Source: Candidatus Undinarchaeota archaeon
GTDB taxonomy: Archaea > Undinarchaeota > Undinarchaeia > Undinarchaeales > UBA543
DNA: 38,839 bases
Direction of reading: 5' to 3'
Assembly (NCBI GenBank): GCA_964567575.1
Contig: CAZMMZ010000010.1
Coordinates: 1-38,839 of the forward strand
In this document: positions 5,068 through 22,022 of the stretch, piece by piece
How the letters are laid out: each line of letters begins with the position of its first letter
Numbering within the stretch: position 1 is the first letter of the stretch
Notes under the pieces: model-generated
Databases searched by the model: none
What the model was told of the DNA's origin: nothing
Seen by the model: only the letters and a program-made list of their open reading frames with translations
Program-made: the position numbers and the translations under genes

Positions 5068-5616
5068 ATGACAATAGAAGAGCACGCTGAAAAACTATCA
5101 AATCTAGCTAAAGAAGCTGTTGGACTGAAAGAACCGATTATGAAAACTGTTGAGATGATAAAAGAAGCACTAGCAAGCGGGAACAAAGTATTATCCTGTG
5201 GAAATGGTGGAAGTGCTTCAGATTCAGATCATTTTATAGGCGAACTTGTTTGCAAGTTCAGAAAAGATCGCGCTCCTCTTGCAGGAATTTCACTTAATTC
5301 TAACACTGCTGTAATAACAGCAATTGCAAATGATTATGGATATGACAAAGTTTTCGCACGGCAAGTTGAAGCTCTTGGAAAATCAGGAGATGTTTTAATT
5401 GTTATTAGCACAAGCGGAACTTCAGAAAATGTTGTTAAGGCAGCGCAGAAAGCAAAAGAACTCGGAATAAAAACAATTGCACTCACAGGAAATGTAGGAA
5501 CACTAGCTGGAGAATGTGATCACAGTATCGCGATTTCAAGCGACGATGTTCCACGAATTCAAGAATTACATGCATTTACATTGCATGAAATTTGCGAGGC
5601 ACTGGATGAAAACTGA
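5068..5616 (+). CDS. gmhA: Phosphoheptose (sedoheptulose-7-phosphate) isomerase
   Basis: CGNGGSASDSDHFIGEL, TAIANDYGYDKVFARQVEALG, ISTSG, RIQELH...H. Confidence 0.93.
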   Translation: MTIEEHAEKLSNLAKEAVGLKEPIMKTVEMIKEALASGNKVLSCGNGGSASDSDHFIGELVCKFRKDRAPLAGISLNSNTAVITAIANDYGYDKVFARQVEALGKSGDVLIVISTSGTSENVVKAAQKAKELGIKTIALTGNVGTLAGECDHSIAISSDDVPRIQELHAFTLHEICEALDEN

Positions 5617-6514
5617 AGATGTTAATGTTTTGATTATTGGAGATTTAATGCTAGACCGTTATTTAATTGGAGATAATTCTAGAATGTCTCCTGAAGCCCC
5701 AGTTCCAGTTATTAAGAAAGAAGATACAAAAGATGTTCTTGGTGGCGCAGCGAATGTTGCAAAGAATATTGTTGAACTTGGAGCAAATGCAGAAATTATT
5801 GGAGTTATTGGAAATGAAGAAGAAGGAAATGCTTTGAAAAAACTTGCAGACAAAGCTGGAATCAAAACAGATGCAATAATTATTGACAATAACAGACCAA
5901 CAACTGTGAAAAACCGAATTGTCACAAAATCTTTCCAGCAACTTTTAAGAATTGATTCTGAATACACAGAAAGTATCACACCCGCTGATGAAGAAAAGAT
6001 AATCAACACAATTAATGAGAAAGCAAAAGACGTTAGCATCATAGTGCTTTCAGACTATGCAAAAGGTGTTATTACAAAAAATATTGTTGAAGCTGCAAAA
6101 CAAACTGGAAAGAAAGTTCTTGTTGATCCTAAACCAAGTAATGCTGAGCTTTTCAAAGGTGTTGAAATTATTACTCCTAATTTAAAAGAATCGCAAGAAA
6201 TTGTTAAGAGTGATGGTGCACCTGAAGAAATCGGAAAGAAATTAGCAGAACAACTTGAATGTAAAGTTCTGATGACAATGGGAGCTGAAGGAATGATGTT
6301 AATTTCTGATAAAGTTGAGCACATCCCTATTGAAGCAAAAGAAATTTTTGATGTAACGGGTGCAGGAGATACTGTAATCGCTGTATTGAGTGTGGCGCTT
6401 GCTTCTGGTCTTAATGAATTAGAATCAGCTAAGATTGCAAACAAAGCTGCAGGAATTGTAATTGGAAAACGTCGCGTTAATGAAATTAATTTGAAGGAGG
6501 AATTAGGATTATGA
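5606..6514 (+). CDS. hldA: D-glycero-beta-D-manno-heptose-7-phosphate kinase (HldE/RfaE domain I, PfkB family)
   Basis: [58 protein letters not shown]. Likely start is ATG 5606, overlapping the gmhA end; the track's 5516 start is an upstream extension. Confidence 0.9.
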
Positions 6515-6969
6515 AAATCCTTTCACGCGACGAAGCAAAAACAAAAATCGCAGAACTGAAAAGTTCTGGAAAGAAAATTGTTTTCACAAACGGTTGTTTT
6601 GATATTTTACATATCGGACATATTCGTTATTTGAAAGAAGCTAAAGCTCTTGGAGATGTTTTAATTATTGGACTTAATTCTGATGAATCGGTTAAGAAAT
6701 TAAAAGGAGAAGGACGTCCAGTACAATCTGAACAAGAACGAGCAGAAATTCTATCTGCTCTTGAAGTAATTGATTATGTTGTAATATTTAATGAAGATAC
6801 CCCAAAAGAAATCATACTTGAATTAAAACCAGACATCCAAGCAAAAGGCGGGGATTACAAAGAAGATGAAATCCCTGAGAAAGAAGCTCTGGAAAGTTAT
6901 GGTGGAGAACTCAGAATCTTGTCAAAAGTTGATTGTGATTCAACAACAGAATTAATTTCAAAACTTTAA
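6511..6969 (+). CDS. hldC: Heptose-1-phosphate nucleotidyltransferase (HldE/RfaE domain II)
   Basis: [18 protein letters not shown] (HxGH), [20 protein letters not shown]-terminal STT. Confidence 0.93.
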
Positions 6970-6970
6970 A

Positions 6971-8116
6971 ATGTCTAAATTAAAAATCCCAATTCATATT
7001 AGAATATTTGATTTTATTTTTGGGATTAAAGCAAAAGCGTGGGATTTGATTTTCGCTAACCACAAGCCGATTTTCGGACCGTTCCAAAACATTCTTGTAA
7101 TAAATTTAATGGGACTGGGAAATATGATATTCTCAATTCCATTAATGAAAACTTTGAGAAAGAATTACCCAGAAGCTCGAATAACTTTGCTTGCATCTTA
7201 TGCACCAGTGAAAGAATTAATGGCAGAGCACAAAGATCTTGTAGACAATATTATTTTCTTCAACTCAGACGAGCACAAAGGACTTTTCAAAAAAAAGAGA
7301 TTTATGAAAAATCTTGGGAAAAGAAAATTCGATCTTTCAGTTCTGACTTATCCAAGTGGAAAATTCAGTGGAATTGCTGCTTGGTTTATTGGAGCTAAAA
7401 AACGAATTGCTGTTGAACAGAAAATCGGATTGTTCAAAACAGGTGTACTAGCAACGAGCATTGTTAGGTCTAATAGCAAACATTGTGTTGATGTGAATCT
7501 CGATATAATGAAAGCACTTCATGCAAAAGATATTGACAATAGTATTGCTTTGAATGTTCCAGAAGAATCTGTAAAGAATGCAAACGAGTTATTGAAACAA
7601 CGTGGATGGTTGAGTGGTCAGAAACTAATTGGAGTTCATACAGGATCAGTACCAGAGACCTGGTACAAACAATGGAACCAACATGGTTTTGCTGAAGCTT
7701 GCACAACTCTTGCAAAAAAGCACAATGCAAAGATTATGATTGTTGGTGGACCAGATGAACTTCGCGCTGGTGAAAGCATTCACGCAATGATGAATGAGAA
7801 ACCAATTATGTTCTTTAATAAAACAATTCCTGAAACAGCTGCACTGATTAAGAATTGTAATGTTTTCATAAGCACAGATACAGGGCCGGGGCATATGGCT
7901 TCTGCATTAGGAATCCCAGTTGTTAGTATCTTTGGACCAACTGATTCAGAGAAAGCAAAACCATATGGGAAAAATGTTATTGTTGTGCAAAGTAAATTGG
8001 AATGTGTTCCTTGTATTGATTCATTTACAGCGAATTATTTTAAATGCAAAGAAAGAAAATGCCTTGTTGAATTAGAACCTGAGAAAATTGTTGAAGCTGT
8101 TGAGAAAATGATTTAA
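6971..8116 (+). CDS. GT9 family glycosyltransferase (ADP-heptose-dependent heptosyltransferase-like)
   Basis: GLGNMIFSIPLMKTLRKNYPEARITLL, KQWNQHGF, TDTGPGHMASALGIPVVSIFGPT, C-terminal CVPC...C. Confidence 0.88.
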   Translation: MSKLKIPIHIRIFDFIFGIKAKAWDLIFANHKPIFGPFQNILVINLMGLGNMIFSIPLMKTLRKNYPEARITLLASYAPVKELMAEHKDLVDNIIFFNSDEHKGLFKKKRFMKNLGKRKFDLSVLTYPSGKFSGIAAWFIGAKKRIAVEQKIGLFKTGVLATSIVRSNSKHCVDVNLDIMKALHAKDIDNSIALNVPEESVKNANELLKQRGWLSGQKLIGVHTGSVPETWYKQWNQHGFAEACTTLAKKHNAKIMIVGGPDELRAGESIHAMMNEKPIMFFNKTIPETAALIKNCNVFISTDTGPGHMASALGIPVVSIFGPTDSEKAKPYGKNVIVVQSKLECVPCIDSFTANYFKCKERKCLVELEPEKIVEAVEKMI

Positions 8117-9735
8117 CCCTCATGCGCAAGCATTTCGGAAACTTCTTTGTAATCACCGAAATCGTGAATCTCACTCCATCCTTTATTTATTTCAAGTGAA
8201 TTAACTGTCTCACCGTTGTCAATAAGTTTCTGAATTGCAGAAGCCAAACCCATTTTCTTATCTCCAGAATCTTTGTAGACTTGCATGAGCTTCCCCATAC
8301 CGGTTTTTGAGAACAAGGATATTCCAATGAATTCATAATTTGCTTTTTCCCTGTCAAGACCTTTTCCAAGATTCAAAATTTTATTTGTGCGATTAACACT
8401 AACTACTCGGTCACCATTTAATGGTGGTTTTTCGGCAATAACCAATTCAATATCTGAACGCTCTTCTGTTTTTCTAATTGATCGGTCAACCACAATAGTA
8501 ATGTCATCTTCAGTTTTGAGAAGTTTCTCCAAAATTTCATTATCGAAAATAATATCAGCAAAAAGTATGAGATTCTTGTTTGAGTAATTGTCACCAGCTT
8601 TTTCAATTGAATCCATTATGTGGCCTTGCTCATAATTTTCATTTACAATTAAATTAATATCATCAGCAACAATGTGCTCAGCTTTGTAACCGCCAACAAC
8701 AGTGATGTCATCAACACCACAGCGCTTCAATGATTCAACACTTCTTTGCAAAATTGATTTTCCATTAACATCTAACATAGTAAGTGGTCGGTCTTCAAGA
8801 AGTTCTTTCAAAGTTGGTTCAATACTTCTATCACCAGCTGCAGGGATAATTGCTTTAATTGGTTCGTTTGTTCTAACAAATTTATCCTGATCTTCTTTGA
8901 ATTTATCCATTTCCTGTAATGCAAAGAGGTCTTGCACGCTAGCGATTTTAGGTTCAATATTAGCAAGTCCGTTTTCTTTTATTTCTGCAAGAGTTTCATT
9001 AACATGTTTTACAATTGTTCGAATTCCTTGATTAGCATAAATAACAAGTTTCACACCATATTGTTTCATCTGCTCTTCTGTGAACGTTGGATAATTTGTT
9101 GGAACCAGAACAACTGGTTTGTAATTGTCCCAAGCTTTTAGGAAATCTTCAATTTCTTTTGGATCTGATTTCTTTGAATGAATAAAAATTGCATCTGCAC
9201 CAGCATCTGCATAAGCTCTTGCTCTTTTGAGTGCTTCTTCCTGGCCCCAGCCAGCAATCAACGCTTCAACACGAGCAATAACCATAAACTCTTCTGTTTC
9301 CTGTGCATTCTTTGCAGCCATTATCTTTCCAACGAATTCTGCAATTGGTGCAAGTTCTTGTTTCCCGCCTTCAAGCAAACTATTTGCTTTTGGGAATTTC
9401 TTATCTTCAATACAAACTGCAGAAATTCCAGCATCTTCAAATTTGCGAACCATTCTGATTACATTCATTGAATTGCCGTATCCAGTATCACAGTCTACAA
9501 CAACAGGAACTGTTGTTGAATCATTCATTGAAACTGCAGCTGCAAGATGATCAGACATTGTTAGAATATTAGCATCAGGAACTGCATGAGAAGCAGAAAT
9601 TTCTAAACCAGAAGCCCAAACACCATCAAAACCATTAAGCTCTACAAGTTTTGCAGTTAACCCATTGTGAGCTCCAACGATCCGTACCAGATCTTTCTTT
9701 TCAAAAAGTTCACGAAGTTTTTCTGCTTTTCTCAT
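8113..9735 (-). CDS. pepM: Phosphoenolpyruvate mutase fused to a C-terminal nucleotidyltransferase (NTP_transf/LicC-like) domain
   Basis: GAHNGLTA, GVWASG, DCDTGYG, and the diagnostic EDKx5NS motif (EDKKFPKANS) that separates PepM from isocitrate-lyase-family paralogues. From about residue 292: KAIIPAAG...ILQRSVESL...VVGGYK...LFADIIF...EIH. Confidence 0.95.
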   Translation of the reverse strand: MRKAEKLRELFEKKDLVRIVGAHNGLTAKLVELNGFDGVWASGLEISASHAVPDANILTMSDHLAAAVSMNDSTTVPVVVDCDTGYGNSMNVIRMVRKFEDAGISAVCIEDKKFPKANSLLEGGKQELAPIAEFVGKIMAAKNAQETEEFMVIARVEALIAGWGQEEALKRARAYADAGADAIFIHSKKSDPKEIEDFLKAWDNYKPVVLVPTNYPTFTEEQMKQYGVKLVIYANQGIRTIVKHVNETLAEIKENGLANIEPKIASVQDLFALQEMDKFKEDQDKFVRTNEPIKAIIPAAGDRSIEPTLKELLEDRPLTMLDVNGKSILQRSVESLKRCGVDDITVVGGYKAEHIVADDINLIVNENYEQGHIMDSIEKAGDNYSNKNLILFADIIFDNEILEKLLKTEDDITIVVDRSIRKTEERSDIELVIAEKPPLNGDRVVSVNRTNKILNLGKGLDREKANYEFIGISLFSKTGMGKLMQVYKDSGDKKMGLASAIQKLIDNGETVNSLEINKGWSEIHDFGDYKEVSEMLAHEG

Positions 9736-9773
9736 TTTAGTAAATTTAAAGTCCTGATTTCATATTAAAAGAG

Positions 9774-10322
9774 TTATGAAAGGTATTTTCTCATACGTTC
9801 TGTGATTTCCTCTGGAGAAACTTGAACTCTGCCAACTTCTCGCTTGCCTGCTTCAACCATTACGCGGATGAACACAGGTCCTGTGTATTCACTAACTAGA
9901 GCTGATTCAAGTTCTTCAATAGTTTCTGCTTTAACTGTGGTTGTATAACCAGCAGCCTTCGCCACATTCTCAAGCTCGATTGTTGGCGATACTGTTTTCT
10001 GCGAACCAGTTGATTCGTAAACACCATTATCAATTACAATATGAATAAAATTTTCTGGTTTTAGATTTCCAATTGTTGCAAGCGCTCCCATGTTCATTAA
10101 AACATTTCCATCGCCATCAAGAACTACAACTTTCTTTTTTGAATTCAATGCAATTCCTGCGCCAATTGATGGAGCCATACCCATTGATCCAATCATGTAA
10201 AAGTTTCTTTCTGAATCTCCAGTGTCGTGAAGCTCACGACTGATGAAACCATTTGCTGAGATAACAACTTCATCTCCTTTCAAAAGAGATATGATTTTTG
10301 AAACAGCTTCTTGTGTTTTCAT
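9774..10322 (-). CDS. Phosphonopyruvate decarboxylase beta (ThDP-binding) subunit, ComE-like
   Basis: NFYMIGSMGMAPSIG, ThDP motif DGDGNVLM...IDNG, YESTGSQ. Adjacent to pepM. Confidence 0.88.
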   Translation of the reverse strand: MKTQEAVSKIISLLKGDEVVISANGFISRELHDTGDSERNFYMIGSMGMAPSIGAGIALNSKKKVVVLDGDGNVLMNMGALATIGNLKPENFIHIVIDNGVYESTGSQKTVSPTIELENVAKAAGYTTTVKAETIEELESALVSEYTGPVFIRVMVEAGKREVGRVQVSPEEITERMRKYLS

Positions 10323-10798
10323 TCTAAAGACCCCTTCTTGAAAATCAAGGCAACTGGCTTTCCAGTTTCCTCAAGTTCTGTTGTTGCTTTGTCAACATCC
10401 CCAAGTGAGTCGAATATGAAATATGGAACCCCAATTGAATCAAGGAGTTTTGTCATTGACTCGCCCATGACCCAATGCTCTGGAGCATCTTCTTTTGTTT
10501 CTCCGCGCCAACTGATTAACATCAAGATTGGAATTTTGTAAAGCAAGTCAAGTGAAGAAAGAATATTAATTGAATTTCCAAGCCCAGAGTTTTGCATAAC
10601 CATTACTGGCTTTTTACCAGCAAGCTGCGCCCCTGTGCAAAATCCCAGTGCTTCATCCTCGCGAGTGTTTGCAATGTATTTGAAATCTTCTTGTTCTAAT
10701 TTCCTAATTAGAGTTTTGAATATAGAGCACGGTACTCCCGTGTAAAAATTAAATCCTTTTTCTGTAAGCTTAGCGAGAAACTCGCCTGTGTCTACCAT
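10319..10798 (-). CDS. Phosphonopyruvate decarboxylase alpha subunit, ComD-like
   Basis: FYTGVPCSIF, NTREDEALG, MQNSGLGNSIN, LISWRG...DAPEHWVMG. Confidence 0.88.
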   Translation of the reverse strand: MVDTGEFLAKLTEKGFNFYTGVPCSIFKTLIRKLEQEDFKYIANTREDEALGFCTGAQLAGKKPVMVMQNSGLGNSINILSSLDLLYKIPILMLISWRGETKEDAPEHWVMGESMTKLLDSIGVPYFIFDSLGDVDKATTELEETGKPVALIFKKGSLE

Positions 10799-10824
10799 TG
10801 TAAGAAAACTGTTTTGAAAACTGG

Positions 10825-10863
10825 TTATTAAGCTTATGATATAGTATTCATAACCTTAAAATA
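10825..10863. promoter_or_regulatory. Divergent promoter of the phosphonate genes
   Basis: TTATTAAG at 10825-10832 (CTTAATAA on minus) is 26 nt before ATG 10798. ATAAC-CTTAAAATA ending at 10863 is 23 nt before ATG 10887. Confidence 0.55.
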
Positions 10864-10886
10864 CCCAACTCAAACACCTTCTTTTT

Positions 10887-11843
10887 ATGGAACTGTTATT
10901 GCCGAAGCACATTATATTCGAACGAGGTGCACTTAGCAAATTACCAGACTTTGTGAGCGAAGGCAAGACACTTCTAATTACTTCTAAAGGAATGCTGACC
11001 CGATGGCCAGTAGACAAGATCAAAGAGCTCATTAAAGATATTGAAATTTTTTCAGATGTAGAGCCAGAACCAAGTATGGAAACTGTTGAGAAAGCAAAAG
11101 CAATTGGTGCTGACACAGTTATTGGATTAGGTGGTGGTTCAGTTCTTGATGTTGCAAAATATGTTGCAATGGAACTCAATGCAAAGAAAATTATGATTCC
11201 AACAACTGCAGGAACTGGAAGCGAAGTAACTCATGAATCTGTTTTGAAAATTGATGGAAAAAAGAAAGGAATCAAAAATGAGAAACTTTTATCAGATGTT
11301 GCAATTGTAGATCCTGAGCTTAGCTTGACAATGCCTGAGAAACTAACAGCATGCACTGGTATTGATGCGCTCGCTCATGCAGTTGAATGTTACGAATCAA
11401 AGAAAAGTAATATCATGATAAAATTCCTTGCAAAAGAAGCAATTGACATAATCAAATTAAATCTTAAGAAAGCTATTAGCGGAGATGAGCAAGCTCGCGA
11501 GCAAATGGCTTACGCAAGTATGGTAGCTGGAATGGCTTTTGGAAATTCAGGAACTGCACTCGGGCATGCACTTTCTTATCCACTTTCAAATCAAGGAATT
11601 CCACACGGCGAAGCAGTTGCAATTGTTTTACCTTATGCTCTTGACTTTAATGGAACAGATCCTGAACTTTCACAACAAATTAAAACTATAATTAAAGAAA
11701 CTGGATTGGGAGATGTGAAAATTAAAGGAACACCTGAAGAACTTGCAGAAGTTGTATTCCCAGACAAGAGGCATCTTGATAATAATCCAAAAGAAGTTAC
11801 AAAAAAAGATCTTGTTAAAATCTTCACAGAGATATTAAAATGA
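10887..11843 (+). CDS. Iron-containing (group III) alcohol dehydrogenase, probable phosphonoacetaldehyde reductase
   Basis: GLGGGSVLDVAK, IPTTAGTGSEVT, metal ligands DALAH, GHALSY, PHGEA. Divergent from ppd/pepM. The specific function is inferred from context (PhpC/FomC-type). Confidence 0.8.
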   Translation: MELLLPKHIIFERGALSKLPDFVSEGKTLLITSKGMLTRWPVDKIKELIKDIEIFSDVEPEPSMETVEKAKAIGADTVIGLGGGSVLDVAKYVAMELNAKKIMIPTTAGTGSEVTHESVLKIDGKKKGIKNEKLLSDVAIVDPELSLTMPEKLTACTGIDALAHAVECYESKKSNIMIKFLAKEAIDIIKLNLKKAISGDEQAREQMAYASMVAGMAFGNSGTALGHALSYPLSNQGIPHGEAVAIVLPYALDFNGTDPELSQQIKTIIKETGLGDVKIKGTPEELAEVVFPDKRHLDNNPKEVTKKDLVKIFTEILK

Positions 11844-12577
11844 AAGCAGTAATTGTTGCAGCAGGAAAAGGAACTCGGCTTTATGGTAATGATGCTGAAA
11901 TCCCAAAATGCCTTACTGAAATTGCTGATGGAAAAACTCTTCTTGATTTAATGATTGCCAGTTTGAACAAGCACGGAATCACAGACATTGCAATTGTCAC
12001 AGGATGGAAAAAAGAAATGATTCAAGAAAAACTTGGAGATTCTGTAAAATACTTTTTCAATCCTTTTTACAAAACAACAAACAACATGGCTTCCTTCTGG
12101 TTTGCAACAGAATTTGTTGATGGTTCTGACTTTCTTTATTTGCATGCAGATTTGCTTTATGATGATGAACTAATCAAGAAAGCTATGGAAAGTGAAGGAG
12201 ACATTAATCTGCTTACAGACAAAGATGATTTCAATGAAGAAGCAATGAAAGTGAGATTAGATGAGCAAGGAAATTTAATTGAATCCAGTAAAGCAATCCC
12301 TCTTGATGAAGCACATGGAGAATGGACAGGAATTATAAAATTCACTGCAAATGGTTGGAATAATTTACTTCCGGAAATAGAAACTCTGCTTTTTGAAGGA
12401 AAATTCATGGACTACGACACTTCAGCTTTGACAAATCTTGCTGAAAAGAAATTCCCAATCAAAATCACAAGCACTGAAAAACTGCCTTGGATTGAAATTG
12501 ACTTCCCAGAAGACCTTGAAAGAGCGAAGAATAAAATTTATAAAACCCTAATAGGAGATAAACAAGACAATGGCTAA
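11840..12577 (+). CDS. Cytidylyltransferase of the LicC/PntC/IPCT type (NTP_transf family)
   Basis: KAVIVAAGKGTRL, IPKCL, VTGWK, YKTTNNMASFW, YLHADLLYD, EWTGIIKF, WIEIDFPEDLERA. Confidence 0.85.
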   Translation: MKAVIVAAGKGTRLYGNDAEIPKCLTEIADGKTLLDLMIASLNKHGITDIAIVTGWKKEMIQEKLGDSVKYFFNPFYKTTNNMASFWFATEFVDGSDFLYLHADLLYDDELIKKAMESEGDINLLTDKDDFNEEAMKVRLDEQGNLIESSKAIPLDEAHGEWTGIIKFTANGWNNLLPEIETLLFEGKFMDYDTSALTNLAEKKFPIKITSTEKLPWIEIDFPEDLERAKNKIYKTLIGDKQDNG

Positions 12578-14069
12578 GATCTTACTTGTATATGCAAACA
12601 GTTTTATGGATAATTTAATACCGACTGGACTGTCTATCTTATCTGCTTGTTTGAAAAAAGCCGGACATAACACTAAACTTTTTGATACAACTTTTTACAA
12701 AACAGTAGAGCGCACAGGAGATGACGCCAGAATCGAGACCCTGCAAGTCAAAAGCACAAACTTGGGAGAGTATGGTCTTAATGAAAAAAAGACCAACATG
12801 GTTGATGATTTGAAAAAAATGGTTGACGAGTATCAACCAGACCTTATTGGATTATCAATTGTTGAAACAACACAAGAAATTGGATTGAAACTTCTCAATG
12901 GTATAAAAGATTATGATATTCCAAAAATTGTTGGAGGTGTCCAAGTAACAATGGCACCAGATTATATTATTTCACAAGATTGTGTTGACATGATTTGTGT
13001 GGGAGAGGGGGAAGGAGCATTTGTTGAACTCGCAAATGCAATTGAAAAGAAAGAAGATTACACTCATATCAAAAATTTATGGATTAAAAAAGATGGTCAA
13101 ATAATAAAGAACCCACTTAGACCATTAATTGATCTTAACACAGTACCAATGCAGGATTGGACAATTTACGAGGAAAAAAGATTATACAAAGCATTTGGTG
13201 GAAAGCACTGGGTCAGTGGACCAATTGAATTGAATCGGGGATGTGTTCACAGATGCGCTTATTGCTGCAATGCAAAACTTCAAGACTTGCACAAAGGAGA
13301 TAGATTCTATGCAAGAGAAAGAAGTTTGGATAAATTCTTTGAAGAATTAAAATATAGAGTGGACAAATATGGGTTGCAATATCCTTATTTTATTGCTGAG
13401 AATTTCATGCAGGGTGGCCCTGCAAGATTTGAAGAATTCTGCAAGAGATACAAAGAATTTAAATTACCATTTTGGTCACAGATGCGAGTTGAAACAATGA
13501 ACGATGATGTGGCTCGCAAATTAAAAGAAATTGGATGTGAAAGATTAAGCATGGGAGTAGAACATGGGAATTATGAATTTAGAAAAGAAGTGCTTAATAG
13601 AAATATCACAGATGAAACAATAATTAAAGCATTCAAATCCGTGAAAGACGCGGGCTTACTGGTTTTCGCAAATAATATTGTTGGTTTCCCTGGAGAAACC
13701 AGAGAACTTTATTTTGATACTGTTGAATTGAACAGAAAACTTGGAGTTAAAAGCATCATAAATGTTTTCTGTGCATACAGAGGAACACATCTACGAGATG
13801 TTGCAGTTGAGAGAGAATACATGGACAAGGACGCTGTGGCAGGAGATTACAGACGGGATGTTAAATTAAACATGCCGCATCTTACTGCAAAGCAGGTTGA
13901 AGGTTTGCAAAGAACCTTTTTACTTTATGTTAATCTTCCGAGAGAGTATTGGCCAGAGATTGAAAAAGCAGAAAAATTCGACGAAGAAGGAAATGCAACT
14001 TTCCAAAAATTAGCAAAACTGTATTTTGAAAAGTACGAACCAGGAGTTAAAAATGTCGAACAAAACTAA
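12570..14069 (+). CDS. Cobalamin-binding radical SAM protein (class B methyltransferase-like)
   Basis: N-terminal B12-binding-type segment (PTGLSILSACLKKAGH, PDLIGLS, IVGG), RGCVHRCAYC (CxxxCxxC), MGVEHG, NIVGFPGET. Confidence 0.88.
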   Translation: MAKILLVYANSFMDNLIPTGLSILSACLKKAGHNTKLFDTTFYKTVERTGDDARIETLQVKSTNLGEYGLNEKKTNMVDDLKKMVDEYQPDLIGLSIVETTQEIGLKLLNGIKDYDIPKIVGGVQVTMAPDYIISQDCVDMICVGEGEGAFVELANAIEKKEDYTHIKNLWIKKDGQIIKNPLRPLIDLNTVPMQDWTIYEEKRLYKAFGGKHWVSGPIELNRGCVHRCAYCCNAKLQDLHKGDRFYARERSLDKFFEELKYRVDKYGLQYPYFIAENFMQGGPARFEEFCKRYKEFKLPFWSQMRVETMNDDVARKLKEIGCERLSMGVEHGNYEFRKEVLNRNITDETIIKAFKSVKDAGLLVFANNIVGFPGETRELYFDTVELNRKLGVKSIINVFCAYRGTHLRDVAVEREYMDKDAVAGDYRRDVKLNMPHLTAKQVEGLQRTFLLYVNLPREYWPEIEKAEKFDEEGNATFQKLAKLYFEKYEPGVKNVEQN

Positions 14070-14787
14070 AAAGAAAAAGAAAATTGTAATACCCGATAAA
14101 GTGGGAGATCAAGTTATTGCACATGCTATCCATAGAAAATTATCTAATAGGATAACACGGATACTGTATCATACACCAATAACACCAAATCAGGTTTCCT
14201 GGATTGGATTTATTTTATGCGCATTCGCAGCACTAATGTTTGCTTTCGGGAATTACACCTGGCTCGTTATTGGTGCCTTTGTTCTAGAACTAGGAAATAT
14301 TTTTGACATGGTTGACGGGGATTTAGCAAGAGCCAAAAAAATGTTTTCAACATATGGTCACTGGCTAGATAGTACTTTAGATGCTATTTTGGATTTTGGA
14401 ATAATCATTGCAGTAACTTATTCTGTTTGGAGAGCACGACCAGAAATGCACGTATGGTTGCTTGGAATGTTTGCAACATACTTCTTAATAGAATTCTTCA
14501 TTATGTCAAGATTTTTCATTTTGCCATATGATTTACCACATAAAGAATTCAAAAAATCATTTGGGAAAATTGGAAAAAGTAAATTTTACAATCTTTTGTA
14601 TTATACAAGACAATATCACATTAACCTGATTGCAATATTCGCAATCCTGAATCAGTTTTACATATTGCTTTGGTGCTGGGCAATCATAGGAAACCTCTAT
14701 TGGGTGGCCTATACCATCTGGCAACACAAAACAATGAGAAAAGTATTTAAAGTAAAAGAGGGGAAAGGTAAAAATCATGGCAACTAA
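14053..14787 (+). CDS. CDP-alcohol phosphotransferase family membrane protein
   Basis: ITPNQVS and the full signature DMVDGDLAR-x8-G-HWL-D-STL-D, with several hydrophobic helices. Likely start is ATG 14053. Confidence 0.9.
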   Translation: MSNKTKKKKKIVIPDKVGDQVIAHAIHRKLSNRITRILYHTPITPNQVSWIGFILCAFAALMFAFGNYTWLVIGAFVLELGNIFDMVDGDLARAKKMFSTYGHWLDSTLDAILDFGIIIAVTYSVWRARPEMHVWLLGMFATYFLIEFFIMSRFFILPYDLPHKEFKKSFGKIGKSKFYNLLYYTRQYHINLIAIFAILNQFYILLWCWAIIGNLYWVAYTIWQHKTMRKVFKVKEGKGKNHGN

Positions 14788-15598
14788 AAACGAATTATGG
14801 GACACTGAAACACATGCAGATTCATTAGATTATGAAAGTAAGCAAAAGAAAAGTCGAATAAGAAATCGACCTTTGACACAAATTCTGTTTAATCTTTACA
14901 AACCAGGAGATAAAATTCTAGATGGTGGATGTGCAACTGGTGGATACTATATGGTATTAAATGAACAGTTCCCAGGAATAGATTATAGTGGAATTGATTT
15001 GACACCTGCAATGATCAGTAGAGCAACAAAGAATTATCCTGGTGGAAAATTTAAGATATGTAGTATTGCAGAGATAACCTATGAAGATAATACTTTTGAT
15101 ACTGTTTTTAGTAGCGATGTGAGAATGCATTTGAATCAAGAAAATTGCGATAAAAGTTTAACAGAATTATACAGAGTATCTAAAAAGAATCTTGTATTAA
15201 CAACTAGATTAAAAGAAAAGGGAGAAGAAATAGTTGACATAACAAGATCCTATCAAACACAGGAAAGTGGTCACGTAGAATATAATTTGTTCCTTTTGTC
15301 AAAATATATTCAGGACATCAAAAATCTAAAACCAACACCAAAGAAAATAACAATTGTTGGAGAATATAATGTTCCGCATTATGATGTTACTCTACCAAAC
15401 AATGAGAAAAATTATATTCGCGCAGATGTTACAATAGAAAAAGGCGATGGTAGCACAACAGAAACTGTAGTAGACATACAAATAAAAAATAAATTCTTTT
15501 CATTATTGAATGAACAAAGTAAAATTTTCGTAGTGAAGGTATTAAGAAAACTTGGACTGAAACCAACACCACAGAAAATGAAGAAAGAATTGGGGTAG
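14777..15598 (+). CDS. Class I SAM-dependent methyltransferase
   Basis: Motif I KILDGGCATG, YSGIDLTPAMI, YEDNTFDTVFS. Confidence 0.85.
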   Translation: MATKNELWDTETHADSLDYESKQKKSRIRNRPLTQILFNLYKPGDKILDGGCATGGYYMVLNEQFPGIDYSGIDLTPAMISRATKNYPGGKFKICSIAEITYEDNTFDTVFSSDVRMHLNQENCDKSLTELYRVSKKNLVLTTRLKEKGEEIVDITRSYQTQESGHVEYNLFLLSKYIQDIKNLKPTPKKITIVGEYNVPHYDVTLPNNEKNYIRADVTIEKGDGSTTETVVDIQIKNKFFSLLNEQSKIFVVKVLRKLGLKPTPQKMKKELG

Positions 15599-17518: not shown

Positions 17519-18499
17519 ATGGTTACAAAAGTAGATTCTGCATTTCATCAGATAAAAGAAACTAAACAAGAAGATACTCCGGAGTACAAAGAGTACCGGA
17601 GACGTTGGTATGAAAATCCAAAAACTCATACTGTTGGAGAATTCCCAATACATCTTGACTTAGAGGGAACTCCATCTTGTAATCTGAAATGTGTGTTTTG
17701 CTATCAATCTTTTGATCCACTAGAAAAGGGATTCATGGAAATGGATTTGTTTAAGAAATGTATTGATGAAGGAGTTGAGAAAGGATTATGTTCAATAAAA
17801 TTACAATACAGAGGAGAAACCCTGTTACATCCAAAAGTTGTTGAGATGGTTCAATATGCAAAAGACAAAGGCGTTTTAGAAGTCATGTTCAATACAAATG
17901 GAATGTTGTTAACAGAAGAGCTGTCAAGGAAATTGATAAACGCTGGAATAGATAAAATTATTTTTTCAATAGAAGGAACTGATGCAGAAACATATGAAAA
18001 ACTTAGAATTGGTGCAAAATGGGAAACAGTATTAAATAATATTAAAGCTTTGAAACGTGTGAAAGAAGAACTTGGTTCAGAAAAACCAATAACAAGAGCT
18101 CAGATGGTAGCAACCCCTGAACTTAAGGATAAAGTAGATGAGTATGCAGAATTTTGGAGTCAATATGTTGACAATATTGGAATAGATGAATATCTTGATT
18201 ACAGACAAGACATGAGCACACCAACAATTTCTAAAGAATTTGCATGTCCACAATTTTGGCAAAGACTTATTGTATTCTGGGATGGAACAATTATTCCTTG
18301 CTGTGAAGAGAGACACGGAAAACTCGCAGTTGGAAATGCCAAAACAGAAAGTATTTCAGATGTGTGGAAAGGTCCAAAAATGCAAAAGCTAAGAGAAAAG
18401 CATCTGAGTGGAGAATCTCATACAATACCATCATGTGCCACATGTATTTCAAGGAAACACATTATTGATAATCATATTAACAAAAAAGAGAGCAGCTAG
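17519..18499 (+). CDS. Radical SAM/SPASM (twitch) domain protein
   Basis: CNLKCVFC, RGETLLHP, FNTNGMLL, FSIEG, C-terminal CPQFW..DGTIIPCC..GN..DVW..CATC. Confidence 0.9.
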   Translation: MVTKVDSAFHQIKETKQEDTPEYKEYRRRWYENPKTHTVGEFPIHLDLEGTPSCNLKCVFCYQSFDPLEKGFMEMDLFKKCIDEGVEKGLCSIKLQYRGETLLHPKVVEMVQYAKDKGVLEVMFNTNGMLLTEELSRKLINAGIDKIIFSIEGTDAETYEKLRIGAKWETVLNNIKALKRVKEELGSEKPITRAQMVATPELKDKVDEYAEFWSQYVDNIGIDEYLDYRQDMSTPTISKEFACPQFWQRLIVFWDGTIIPCCEERHGKLAVGNAKTESISDVWKGPKMQKLREKHLSGESHTIPSCATCISRKHIIDNHINKKESS

Positions 18500-21341: not shown

Positions 21342-22022
21342 ATGAAAACCGAGACTATTTGCATAATTCCAGCCAGAGGTGGCTCTAAAGAGATTCCAAA
21401 GAAAAATATTGTAGATTTAGCTGGAAAACCTCTTATTGCATATACTATTGAAACTGCTAAGCAGAGTGGCGTTTTTGATCATGTTTATGTGTCAACTGAA
21501 GATTCAGAGATTGCTCAAACAGCTAAAGAGTATGGAGCAGAGATAATTGATAGGCCAGCAAAGCTTGCAACTGACGAAGCAGGAACACTATCAGTTCTTC
21601 AGCACGCTGTAAAAGACCGAGATTGTGATATTGTAGTACTAATGCAGGCAACCTCACCATTCACAACTAGTGATGATGTGAAAAAGATGGTTGAGAAGCT
21701 TAAAGAAAGTGAAGCAGATTCAGTTGTAAGTTTGAAAGAAGCTGATTATTCACCTTATTGGATGAAAAAAATTGATGAGAATGGAAAAGTTTCAGAATTT
21801 ATGGAAGGTGGAATAAAGAATTATGTCAGACGACAAGATTTGCCAAAACTTTACCAACTGACTGGCGCAATTTATGCAACCAGAAAAAGAGTTTTAGAAT
21901 CAGGAAATATTCTTGGAGAAAATACACTTTCATATTTGATTCCAGAAGAGAGGTCACTTGATATTGATACAAAATTTGATTTGAAAGTAGCGAGATTATT
22001 GAAAAATGCAGATACAAACTAA
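21342..22022 (+). CDS. neuA: CMP-nonulosonic acid synthetase (acylneuraminate cytidylyltransferase)
   Basis: IIPARGGSKEIPKKNI, GKPLIAYTI, VSTEDSEI, LMQATSPF, RRQDLP, SLDIDT. Confidence 0.93.
   Translation: MKTETICIIPARGGSKEIPKKNIVDLAGKPLIAYTIETAKQSGVFDHVYVSTEDSEIAQTAKEYGAEIIDRPAKLATDEAGTLSVLQHAVKDRDCDIVVLMQATSPFTTSDDVKKMVEKLKESEADSVVSLKEADYSPYWMKKIDENGKVSEFMEGGIKNYVRRQDLPKLYQLTGAIYATRKRVLESGNILGENTLSYLIPEERSLDIDTKFDLKVARLLKNADTN

Follow-up and report, generated by a model that had tools for sequence, protein, structure and literature searches.

Which pathway is served by a cobalamin-binding radical S-adenosylmethionine (SAM) enzyme encoded among phosphonate and sugar genes, and what does it do there? 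The question is raised by a 38,839-nt contig of a Candidatus Undinarchaeota archaeon (CAZMMZ010000010.1, assembly GCA_964567575.1), the whole of which is called the window here. The gene lies in a phosphonate module at 8113–14787 that comprises a PepM–nucleotidyltransferase fusion, a split phosphonopyruvate decarboxylase (Ppd), an iron-dependent alcohol dehydrogenase (Fe-ADH), a PntC-like nucleotidyltransferase, the B12-radical SAM enzyme and a CDP-alcohol phosphotransferase (Table 1). A first-pass annotation of the sequence had likened this arrangement to fosfomycin biosynthesis, in which Fom3 C-methylates cytidylylated 2-hydroxyethylphosphonate (HEP), and had proposed a 2-hydroxypropylphosphonate head group for a cell-surface polymer. 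We find it well supported that the enzyme is part of the phosphonate module, as opposed to the sugar pathway next to it, on the basis of co-occurrence across its clade, two gene fusions and an approximately unbiased (AU) test. That it C-methylates CMP-HEP, the product then being transferred to a membrane-associated alcohol, is a reading to which we give a little less than an even chance.

The enzyme has a large family, with 961 word-sharing relatives at 45–88% identity and 1,932 representatives of 50% clusters recovered at E < 1e-30 in an exhaustive search. Carriers include Nanoarchaeota, Woesearchaeota, Theionarchaea, Methanosarcinales, Omnitrophota, Scalindua and other Brocadiia, Rhodospirillales and Gammaproteobacteria, and are mainly anaerobes or uncultured lineages (Woesearchaeota, Omnitrophota, Scalindua, Methanosarcinales). 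Within the small phylum of the window only 2 of 17 genomes encode it, which indicates that the gene moves horizontally with its cassette. To compare genomic contexts, the 80 best loci from species-representative genomes were collected, neighbouring open reading frames (ORFs) were clustered, and recurrent clusters were annotated; a family tree of 81 members was built, with FastTree and IQ-TREE in agreement.

Every phosphonate-linked locus, including that of the window, falls within one 59-row clade of this tree (SH-aLRT 99). The window's own subclade of nine rows (support 97) has PepM or Ppd within 10 kb in seven loci, the two exceptions being a 10-kb contig and a gene with only 250 bp between it and the end of its contig. 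Another phosphonate subclade is characterized by Fom1-like CTP_transf_like–PepM fusions and transferases of the sulfatase/phosphodiesterase type. In the 41-row subclade labelled Xyl, an AP_endonuc_2 TIM barrel is always encoded directly upstream, and Ppd or PepM occurs within 10 kb in only five loci. At the level of genomes, PepM exceeded the TIGR02320 cut-off in 11 of 15 tested Xyl-subclade genomes, compared with 1 of 10 genomes from the sister clade; for reference, pepM is present in approximately 4% of complete bacterial genomes (PMC8942020). The co-occurrence with pepM that the first-pass annotation had suggested surveying is borne out by these counts, together with the seven loci of the window's subclade.

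Gene fusions point the same way. A single 874-aa ORF in locus L037 (8849–11473) joins Ppd to the B12-binding and radical SAM domains, and the Ppd fusion form P0122 (884 aa) shares 49% identity with the window's enzyme. In locus L019, a single 1059-aa ORF (9977–13156; P0121) combines B12-binding and radical SAM domains with a 2-aminoethylphosphonate (AEP) transaminase and a class I methyltransferase, and carries the NCBI name AEP transaminase. Both P0121 and P0122 are placed within the phosphonate clade.

Methylation of a sugar had been named in the first-pass annotation as an alternative, and grouping among radical SAM enzymes of phosphonate-free glycan loci as part of what would refute the Fom3-like reading. 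Such a group does exist: a glycan-type sister group of approximately 18–19 rows, 42–45% identical to the window's enzyme and alike in length and architecture, has no pepM within 10 kb at any of its loci. Its members are always accompanied by a SPASM radical SAM protein, CTP_transf_3, a short-chain dehydrogenase/reductase (SDR) and a 2-hydroxyacid dehydrogenase, and a 629-aa protein is a further partner. The group forms a single clade in FastTree (supports 92 and 99) and is not cleanly recovered as one in a quick IQ-TREE run. In a more distant relative, P0124 (1097 aa, 35% identity), the enzyme is joined to NeuB and a CMP-nonulosonate synthetase, and nonulosonic acids are the probable substrates of this other branch. 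By analogy, the window's enzyme might work in the legionaminic/pseudaminic-type pathway encoded beside it, with a CMP-nonulosonate or one of its N-acyl groups as a possible target of methylation. In favour of this and against a phosphonate role, homologues of the SPASM radical SAM and CTP_transf_3 partners (approximately 42–45% and 30% identity) lie 3.5–7 kb downstream, and the window has no sister-clade enzyme. No similarity was found between the 623-aa protein of the window and the 629-aa sister-clade partner. The tree nevertheless places the window's enzyme outside the glycan group (supports 97–99), and the AU test rejects its placement there (delta lnL 55.8, p 0.0037), with the caveat that the group to be tested was chosen with the tree already in view. 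Its gene also overlaps the phosphonate nucleotidyltransferase and transferase genes, and in L006, a relative of the same genus whose record is likewise titled Candidatus Undinarchaeota archaeon, PepM, Ppd, ADH, nucleotidyltransferase and radical SAM enzyme stay together. We therefore regard a nonulosonate role as improbable.

The phosphonate module is organized as two divergent units, with the PepM fusion and Ppd on the minus strand and five overlapping genes on the plus strand. The overlap of ADH, cytidylyltransferase and B12-radical SAM genes in one apparent operon, already described in the first-pass annotation, was confirmed (4 and 8 nt). The transferase gene in turn overlaps the radical SAM gene by 44 nt from a TTG start, or by 17 nt from an ATG at 14053.

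Table 1. Features of the window and their coordinates (positions in the 38,839-nt stretch).
Feature	Position	Strand	Remarks
GmhA, HldA-like kinase, true HldC, GT9 heptosyltransferase	5068–8116		Directly beside pepM, in an archaeon
Phosphoenolpyruvate (PEP) mutase (residues 1–290) fused to LicC/PntC-like NTP_transf_3 nucleotidyltransferase (residues 294–533)	8113–9735	−	Pfam, NCBIfam
Ppd beta subunit (thiamine pyrophosphate-binding, C-terminal)	9774–10322	−	TIGR03297 200 bits, profile positions 172–360
Ppd alpha subunit (N-terminal)	10319–10798	−	TIGR03297 127 bits, profile positions 1–156
Compact Fe-dependent alcohol dehydrogenase	10887–11843	+	Fe-ADH and ADH_Fe_C (Pfam)
PntC-like nucleotidyltransferase, 245 aa	11840–12577	+	4-nt overlap with Fe-ADH
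Cobalamin-binding radical SAM enzyme, 499 aa	12570–14069	+	8-nt overlap with nucleotidyltransferase
CDP-alcohol phosphotransferase family membrane enzyme	14026–14787	+	PF01066
Class I SAM methyltransferase	14777–15598	+	Pfam; 11-nt overlap with transferase gene
SPASM radical SAM protein	17519–18499		
CTP_transf_3 protein	21342–22022		

Of the early enzymes, PepM narrowly exceeds its family threshold (TIGR02320, 319.9 bits against a cut-off of 319.55) and retains an intact EDKKFPKANS motif at residue 110; the nucleotidyltransferase domain fused to it is closest to LicC (1jyk) and PntC (6pd1). The Fe-ADH matches the solved Thermotoga Fe-ADH 1vhd end to end and scores 148 bits with the phosphonate-specific family Phn_Fe-ADH (TIGR03405), under the cut-off of 424; it is a predicted phosphonoacetaldehyde reductase yielding HEP, the role of FomC and PhpC. 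At only 318 aa, it is approximately 40–55 aa shorter than its relatives. The stand-alone nucleotidyltransferase has as its best solved relative 6pd1, the A. rimae PntC–AEP transaminase fusion (E 3e-13, full length), followed by LicC; among NCBIfam models it scores highest with IPCT/DIPPS, in the IPCT half. It is a candidate CTP:2-HEP cytidylyltransferase, with both nucleotide and substrate predicted from these relationships. The CDP-alcohol phosphotransferase retains the full signature DMVDGDLARAKKMFSTYGHWLDSTLD at residue 94 and is closest to AF2299 (4o6m, 3e-23) and the DIPPS half of IPCT/DIPPS (4mnd, 5e-12); it may transfer the phosphonyl group from a CMP-phosphonate to an alcohol acceptor.

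Among window ORFs of at least 100 aa, no match was found to the cupin/HppE-type (Fom4) or DUF402 (FomD) families, in line with the first-pass annotation, and DUF402 was also not found in the whole 745-kb genome (82% complete). An AEP transaminase was not found in the window, which has the Fe-ADH instead.

The radical SAM enzyme contains Radical_SAM (PF04055, 72.4 bits) and B12-binding (PF02310, 46.8 bits) domains, both above their cut-offs. Its CVHRCAYC motif starts at residue 225, and the CX3CX2C cysteines C225, C229 and C232 are invariant in 26 homologues. AF2 modeling from these homologues (pLDDT 92.3) gave an N-terminal Rossmann-like B12 domain packed on a partial TIM-barrel radical SAM core. 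Foldseek matched the model to TsrM, MgmA, CysS, TokK, OxsB and AprD4 with E values of 1e-17 to 1e-23. With all six of these solved cobalamin-dependent enzymes it shares the common fold (TM 0.62–0.66), and it differs from them in sequence (13–17% identity) and in a C-terminal helical domain (residues 440–489) that is specific to its family. The model thus identifies a genuine class B-type (cobalamin) enzyme, by a fold that does not reveal the reaction.

For the pathway as a whole, we propose that 8113–14787 forms a module complete in itself for making a phosphonate head group. The PepM–nucleotidyltransferase fusion and the split Ppd would convert PEP to phosphonoacetaldehyde, which the Fe-ADH would reduce to HEP, and the PntC-like nucleotidyltransferase, the PepM-fused one, or both, would make CMP-HEP. 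The radical SAM enzyme would use SAM twice, for methylcobalamin formation and for generation of the 5'-deoxyadenosyl radical; the radical would remove a hydrogen atom from one carbon of the ethyl group in the CMP-linked phosphonate, and the enzyme would place a methyl group on that carbon. By the precedent of Fom3 this would be C2, giving CMP-2-hydroxypropylphosphonate, and C1 may also be considered. The CDP-alcohol phosphotransferase would then attach the phosphonyl group, now methylated, to an alcohol associated with the membrane, either a lipid or a lipid-linked glycan, with release of CMP, which would serve as the leaving group of the transfer in place of FomD hydrolysis and Fom4 epoxidation. 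Family assignments carry this scheme from PEP to HEP; beyond that, we infer the substrates of the nucleotidyltransferases and the transferase, the methylation, the carbon attacked and the acceptor.

The gene order nucleotidyltransferase–radical SAM–transferase, if read as the order of reactions, gives the sequence make the CMP-phosphonate, modify it, transfer it. This order is found in the window and in L012, and likewise in L009, where a second radical SAM gene is inserted. More broadly, the nucleotidyltransferase gene is directly upstream of the primary radical SAM gene in the window, L006 and L012, and the CDP-alcohol phosphotransferase gene adjoins it in L009, L011 and L012. A related module on a Mycetohabitans megaplasmid encodes a CDP-OH transferase, a PntC-like nucleotidyltransferase, a PepM–nucleotidyltransferase fusion, Ppd and an AEP transaminase, with a 2-oxoglutarate (2OG) oxygenase in the tailoring position. 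Since this oxygenase stands where related loci have the radical SAM gene, we consider the position a slot for head-group tailoring.

The tie to HEP is looser than the first-pass annotation had assumed. Within the phosphonate clade, Fe-ADH is found in the window and in loci L006, L008, L015, L018, L037 and L042, while PhnW/AepZ is found in L007, L009, L012, L013, L019, L027, L032 and L043; the AEP transaminase assignment in L007, L009, L012 and L013 exceeds its threshold (TIGR03301, 443 bits, cut-off 361). Because related loci switch between Fe-ADH and AEP transaminase, the enzyme is not expected to be HEP-specific. Its clade also serves AEP-type cassettes, and the most fitting general description of the family is that it tailors CMP-activated 2-substituted ethylphosphonates. 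Of the Fom3-like logic, the position between a PntC-like nucleotidyltransferase and a CMP-releasing transferase with no FomD or Fom4 stands, and the link to HEP does not, as close relatives occur about as often with an AEP transaminase as with Fe-ADH.

Several observations weigh against C-methylation of CMP-HEP. Methylation is predicted from a class prior: most characterized B12-radical SAM enzymes are methylases. None of the curated NCBIfam families is reached (cut-offs 250–750), and the top scores, by small margins and all far under cut-off, belong to the non-methylases HpnJ (94.3 bits, cut-off 577.6) and BchE (90.7 bits, cut-off 481), ahead of a RiPP C-methylase family (77 bits). The best PDB sequence match is the dehydratase AprD4, and the structure search does not tell methylases from OxsB or AprD4, the TM scores being alike. 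Finally, the Fe-ADH and AEP transaminase cassettes are intermixed, with at least four switches on the radical SAM tree (13 of these loci are in the tree), which implies an enzyme that is indifferent to whether C2 bears OH or NH2, or one that acts at a different position, C1. The same observations feed an alternative in which the enzyme acts in the phosphonate pathway by other radical chemistry, namely C1 methylation, rearrangement, dehydration or O2-independent C–C cleavage. C1 is the carbon hydroxylated by PhnY*-type 2OG oxygenases in the equivalent aerobic module; a 2OG oxygenase fills the equivalent slot in Mycetohabitans, and the carriers are mostly anaerobes or uncultured lineages, in which O2-dependent tailoring would be unavailable. 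On the other hand, the differences between family scores are small, four of the six nearest structures (TsrM, MgmA, CysS and TokK) are methylases, as are most characterized members of the class, and the AEP-type loci speak against MpnS-like cleavage. We consider such chemistry unlikely, if by no means far-fetched.

P-methylation to a methylphosphinate, of the PhpK type, had also been offered in the first-pass annotation. The enzyme shows a weak likeness to the PhpK family (TIGR04479, 76.7 bits) and to the Sden_1168 family (54 bits), in both cases far under the cut-offs (600 and 575), and no gene for making an H-phosphinate (HEPD, phosphonoformate route) was found in the window. This reaction is very unlikely.

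Returning to C-methylation of the CMP-phosphonate, its closest precedent is the fosfomycin pathway of Streptomyces (Fom1, Fom2, FomC, Fom3; PMC8158854), with which the window shares a PepM–nucleotidyltransferase fusion, Ppd, Fe-ADH, a predicted cytidylylation and a cobalamin-dependent radical SAM enzyme in the same order. Fom3 accepts only HEP-CMP and not free HEP (PMC8158854). The Fom1 domain order, CTP_transf_like–PepM, occurs in the related loci L052, L027 and L041. The differences are equally clear. The Fom1 nucleotidyltransferase is an N-terminal PF01467 domain, whereas that fused to PepM in the window is C-terminal and of the PF12804/PF00483 type; FomD and Fom4 are missing from the window, and a CDP-alcohol phosphotransferase follows, so that CMP would be spent on transfer instead of being a transient handle; the gene set resides in the 745-kb genome of an archaeon, and related loci use AEP. 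Fom3 and the window's enzyme are likened here by domains, motif and gene context; NCBIfam has no Fom3 model and the PDB no Fom3 entry. Fom3 was not among ten representatives checked by name, and down to 240 bits every representative recovered by the exhaustive search was a member of the family. A search of the plasmid collection for B12-radical SAM enzymes yielded only HpnJ, BchE and unnamed Streptomyces radical SAM proteins, and pepM clusters on Streptomyces plasmids were without a B12-radical SAM gene.

As for the acceptor, the first-pass annotation had suggested a cell-surface polymer; a transferase of the CDP-alcohol phosphotransferase type points, with at least equal likelihood, to an acceptor in the membrane, be it a lipid or a lipid-linked glycan. 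The nucleotidyltransferase and transferase that flank the radical SAM gene have as their best NCBIfam matches the two halves of IPCT/DIPPS of di-myo-inositol phosphate synthesis, with scores (67 and 82 bits) far under the cut-off of 580, and in the window the two genes are split by the radical SAM gene in a phosphonate operon. It is conceivable that the radical SAM enzyme has the acceptor or the completed conjugate as its substrate in place of the CMP-phosphonate, co-travelling as a tailor of the same product. In the Xyl subclade it follows an IPCT/DIPPS-like bifunctional transferase and lies beside an HpnL-like flippase-type membrane protein, and two to six B12-radical SAM paralogues occur in some loci. 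The fusions, however, are to Ppd and AEP transaminase, which are soluble enzymes of the early pathway, and in the window's subclade the gene is located between those of the nucleotidyltransferase and the transferase. Acceptor modification is thus quite unlikely in our view.

Surface phosphonate clusters provide a second comparison. The window resembles the Pnt pathway (Rice et al. 2019, PMC6697681) and the 'Burkholderiales_CDP-OH'/Group 1 phosphonolipid family (PMC8942020), to which the Mycetohabitans module belongs, in its PepM–PF12804 fusion, stand-alone LicC/PntC-like nucleotidyltransferase, CDP-alcohol phosphotransferase and single tailoring enzyme. PepM–PF12804 fusions account for 33% of Ppm proteins, and their combination with a second, free nucleotidyltransferase has already been described for cell-surface phosphonate clusters (PMC6697681). 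Those clusters use an AEP transaminase and a 2OG oxygenase (1-hydroxy-AEP), in place of which the window has Fe-ADH and the B12-radical SAM enzyme. Rice et al. 2019 (PMC6697681) make no mention of radical SAM or cobalamin, and the branch-point inventory of PMC8942020 mentions a radical SAM protein only as an unrelated Campylobacter neighbour and describes no B12-radical SAM enzyme. A full-text literature search found nothing on this clade. While the parts are known from the Pnt pathway, CDP-OH-type clusters and Fom3, the B12-radical SAM enzyme as a fixed, sometimes fused component of a surface cassette appears to be undescribed.

Phosphonate head groups are common on cell surfaces, and to our knowledge their tailoring comprises only hydroxylation and N-methylation; we know of no report of methyl-branched phosphonate head groups there. 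If the proposed pathway is correct, the B12-radical SAM step would add an O2-independent C-methylation to this repertoire. The transient cytidylylation in fosfomycin synthesis would then be one particular form of a surface-decoration pathway that is far more ancient and widespread. Extended to the entire clade, the proposal would have it make methyl-branched head groups on lipids or glycans, 2-hydroxypropylphosphonate here and 2-aminopropylphosphonate in AEP-type loci, in DPANN archaea, Methanosarcinales, anammox bacteria, Omnitrophota and Proteobacteria; this generalization is doubtful, and we offer it as speculation. In marine dissolved organic matter, esterified methylphosphonate and HEP are reportedly joined by a third phosphonate ester that yields propylene (Repeta et al. 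2016); a literature search for this compound found nothing citable. If that report holds, the clade would be a candidate biological source, and the pool would be tied to cobalamin supply. CMP-HEP and CMP-AEP can also be named as defined test substrates for a family of several hundred uncharacterized enzymes.

The first-pass annotation had also implied a cobalamin requirement, which the genome (745 kb, 18 contigs, 82% complete) bears out: it encodes four B12-domain radical SAM proteins, and neither CobS nor CbiB was found in it. As both genes are missing, the host must import cobalamin, and, under the proposed pathway, a symbiont-sized archaeon would depend on the imported cofactor for its envelope. 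The three further B12-domain/radical SAM paralogues are located at C1:1241–2440, C4:38762–39733 and C3:55713–56315 (L002–L004), the first of them within a 780-aa open frame.

With approximately 34% G+C across its length, the window is a glycan island, in which an ADP-heptose set with GT9 lies upstream of the phosphonate module. The CTP_transf_like gene of this set (6511–6969) was considered as a Fom1-type HEP cytidylyltransferase and ruled out, being a true HldC (TIGR02199, 203 bits, cut-off 181.5); it clusters with pepM-adjacent cytidylyltransferase genes at merely 33–34% identity. Downstream, a nonulosonate module separate from the phosphonate module encodes a 623-aa GT-B-like protein, the SPASM radical SAM protein, HisF–HisH, a WbuX amidotransferase, a CMP-sugar synthetase and NeuB, as well as a formyltransferase, PIG-L, NeuC, PglD, FolD, DegT and a PseB-like enzyme. 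The class I methyltransferase at the 3' end of the plus-strand unit shares 30% identity over 107 aa with the methyltransferase domain fused in P0121, and no conservation was seen in the other loci compared; it is a possible further tailoring enzyme of uncertain membership in the module.

Some observations concern the wider family. Two viral contigs from IMG/VR (L088, L091) carry a glycan-type enzyme with SPASM radical SAM, CTP_transf_3 and 2-hydroxyacid dehydrogenase genes and without phosphonate-type context. An isocitrate dehydrogenase beside the radical SAM gene in Brocadiia loci was dismissed as a pathway enzyme, being a housekeeping NADP-IDH above cut-off, and apparent 715-aa XylTIM–radical SAM fusions (L046, L064, L073) were rejected, as the extension contains no domain and the ORFs are probably over-extended in high-GC DNA. 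The Xyl set (L020–L034, L039, L043–L049 and others, 41 loci), found in Scalindua, Brocadiia, Rhodospirillales and Gammaproteobacteria, consists of a Mo enzyme of the dimethyl sulfoxide (DMSO) reductase family, the AP_endonuc_2 TIM barrel and the radical SAM enzyme, with an HpnL-like flippase-type membrane protein or a tartronate-semialdehyde-reductase-like dehydrogenase encoded 3' of the latter. The phosphonate loci with two to six B12-radical SAM paralogues are L012 (Woesearchaeota), L013 (Omnitrophota), L007 and L009; one recurrent second paralogue stands in tandem with the primary gene, and this multiplicity suggests multiple or iterative radical modifications.

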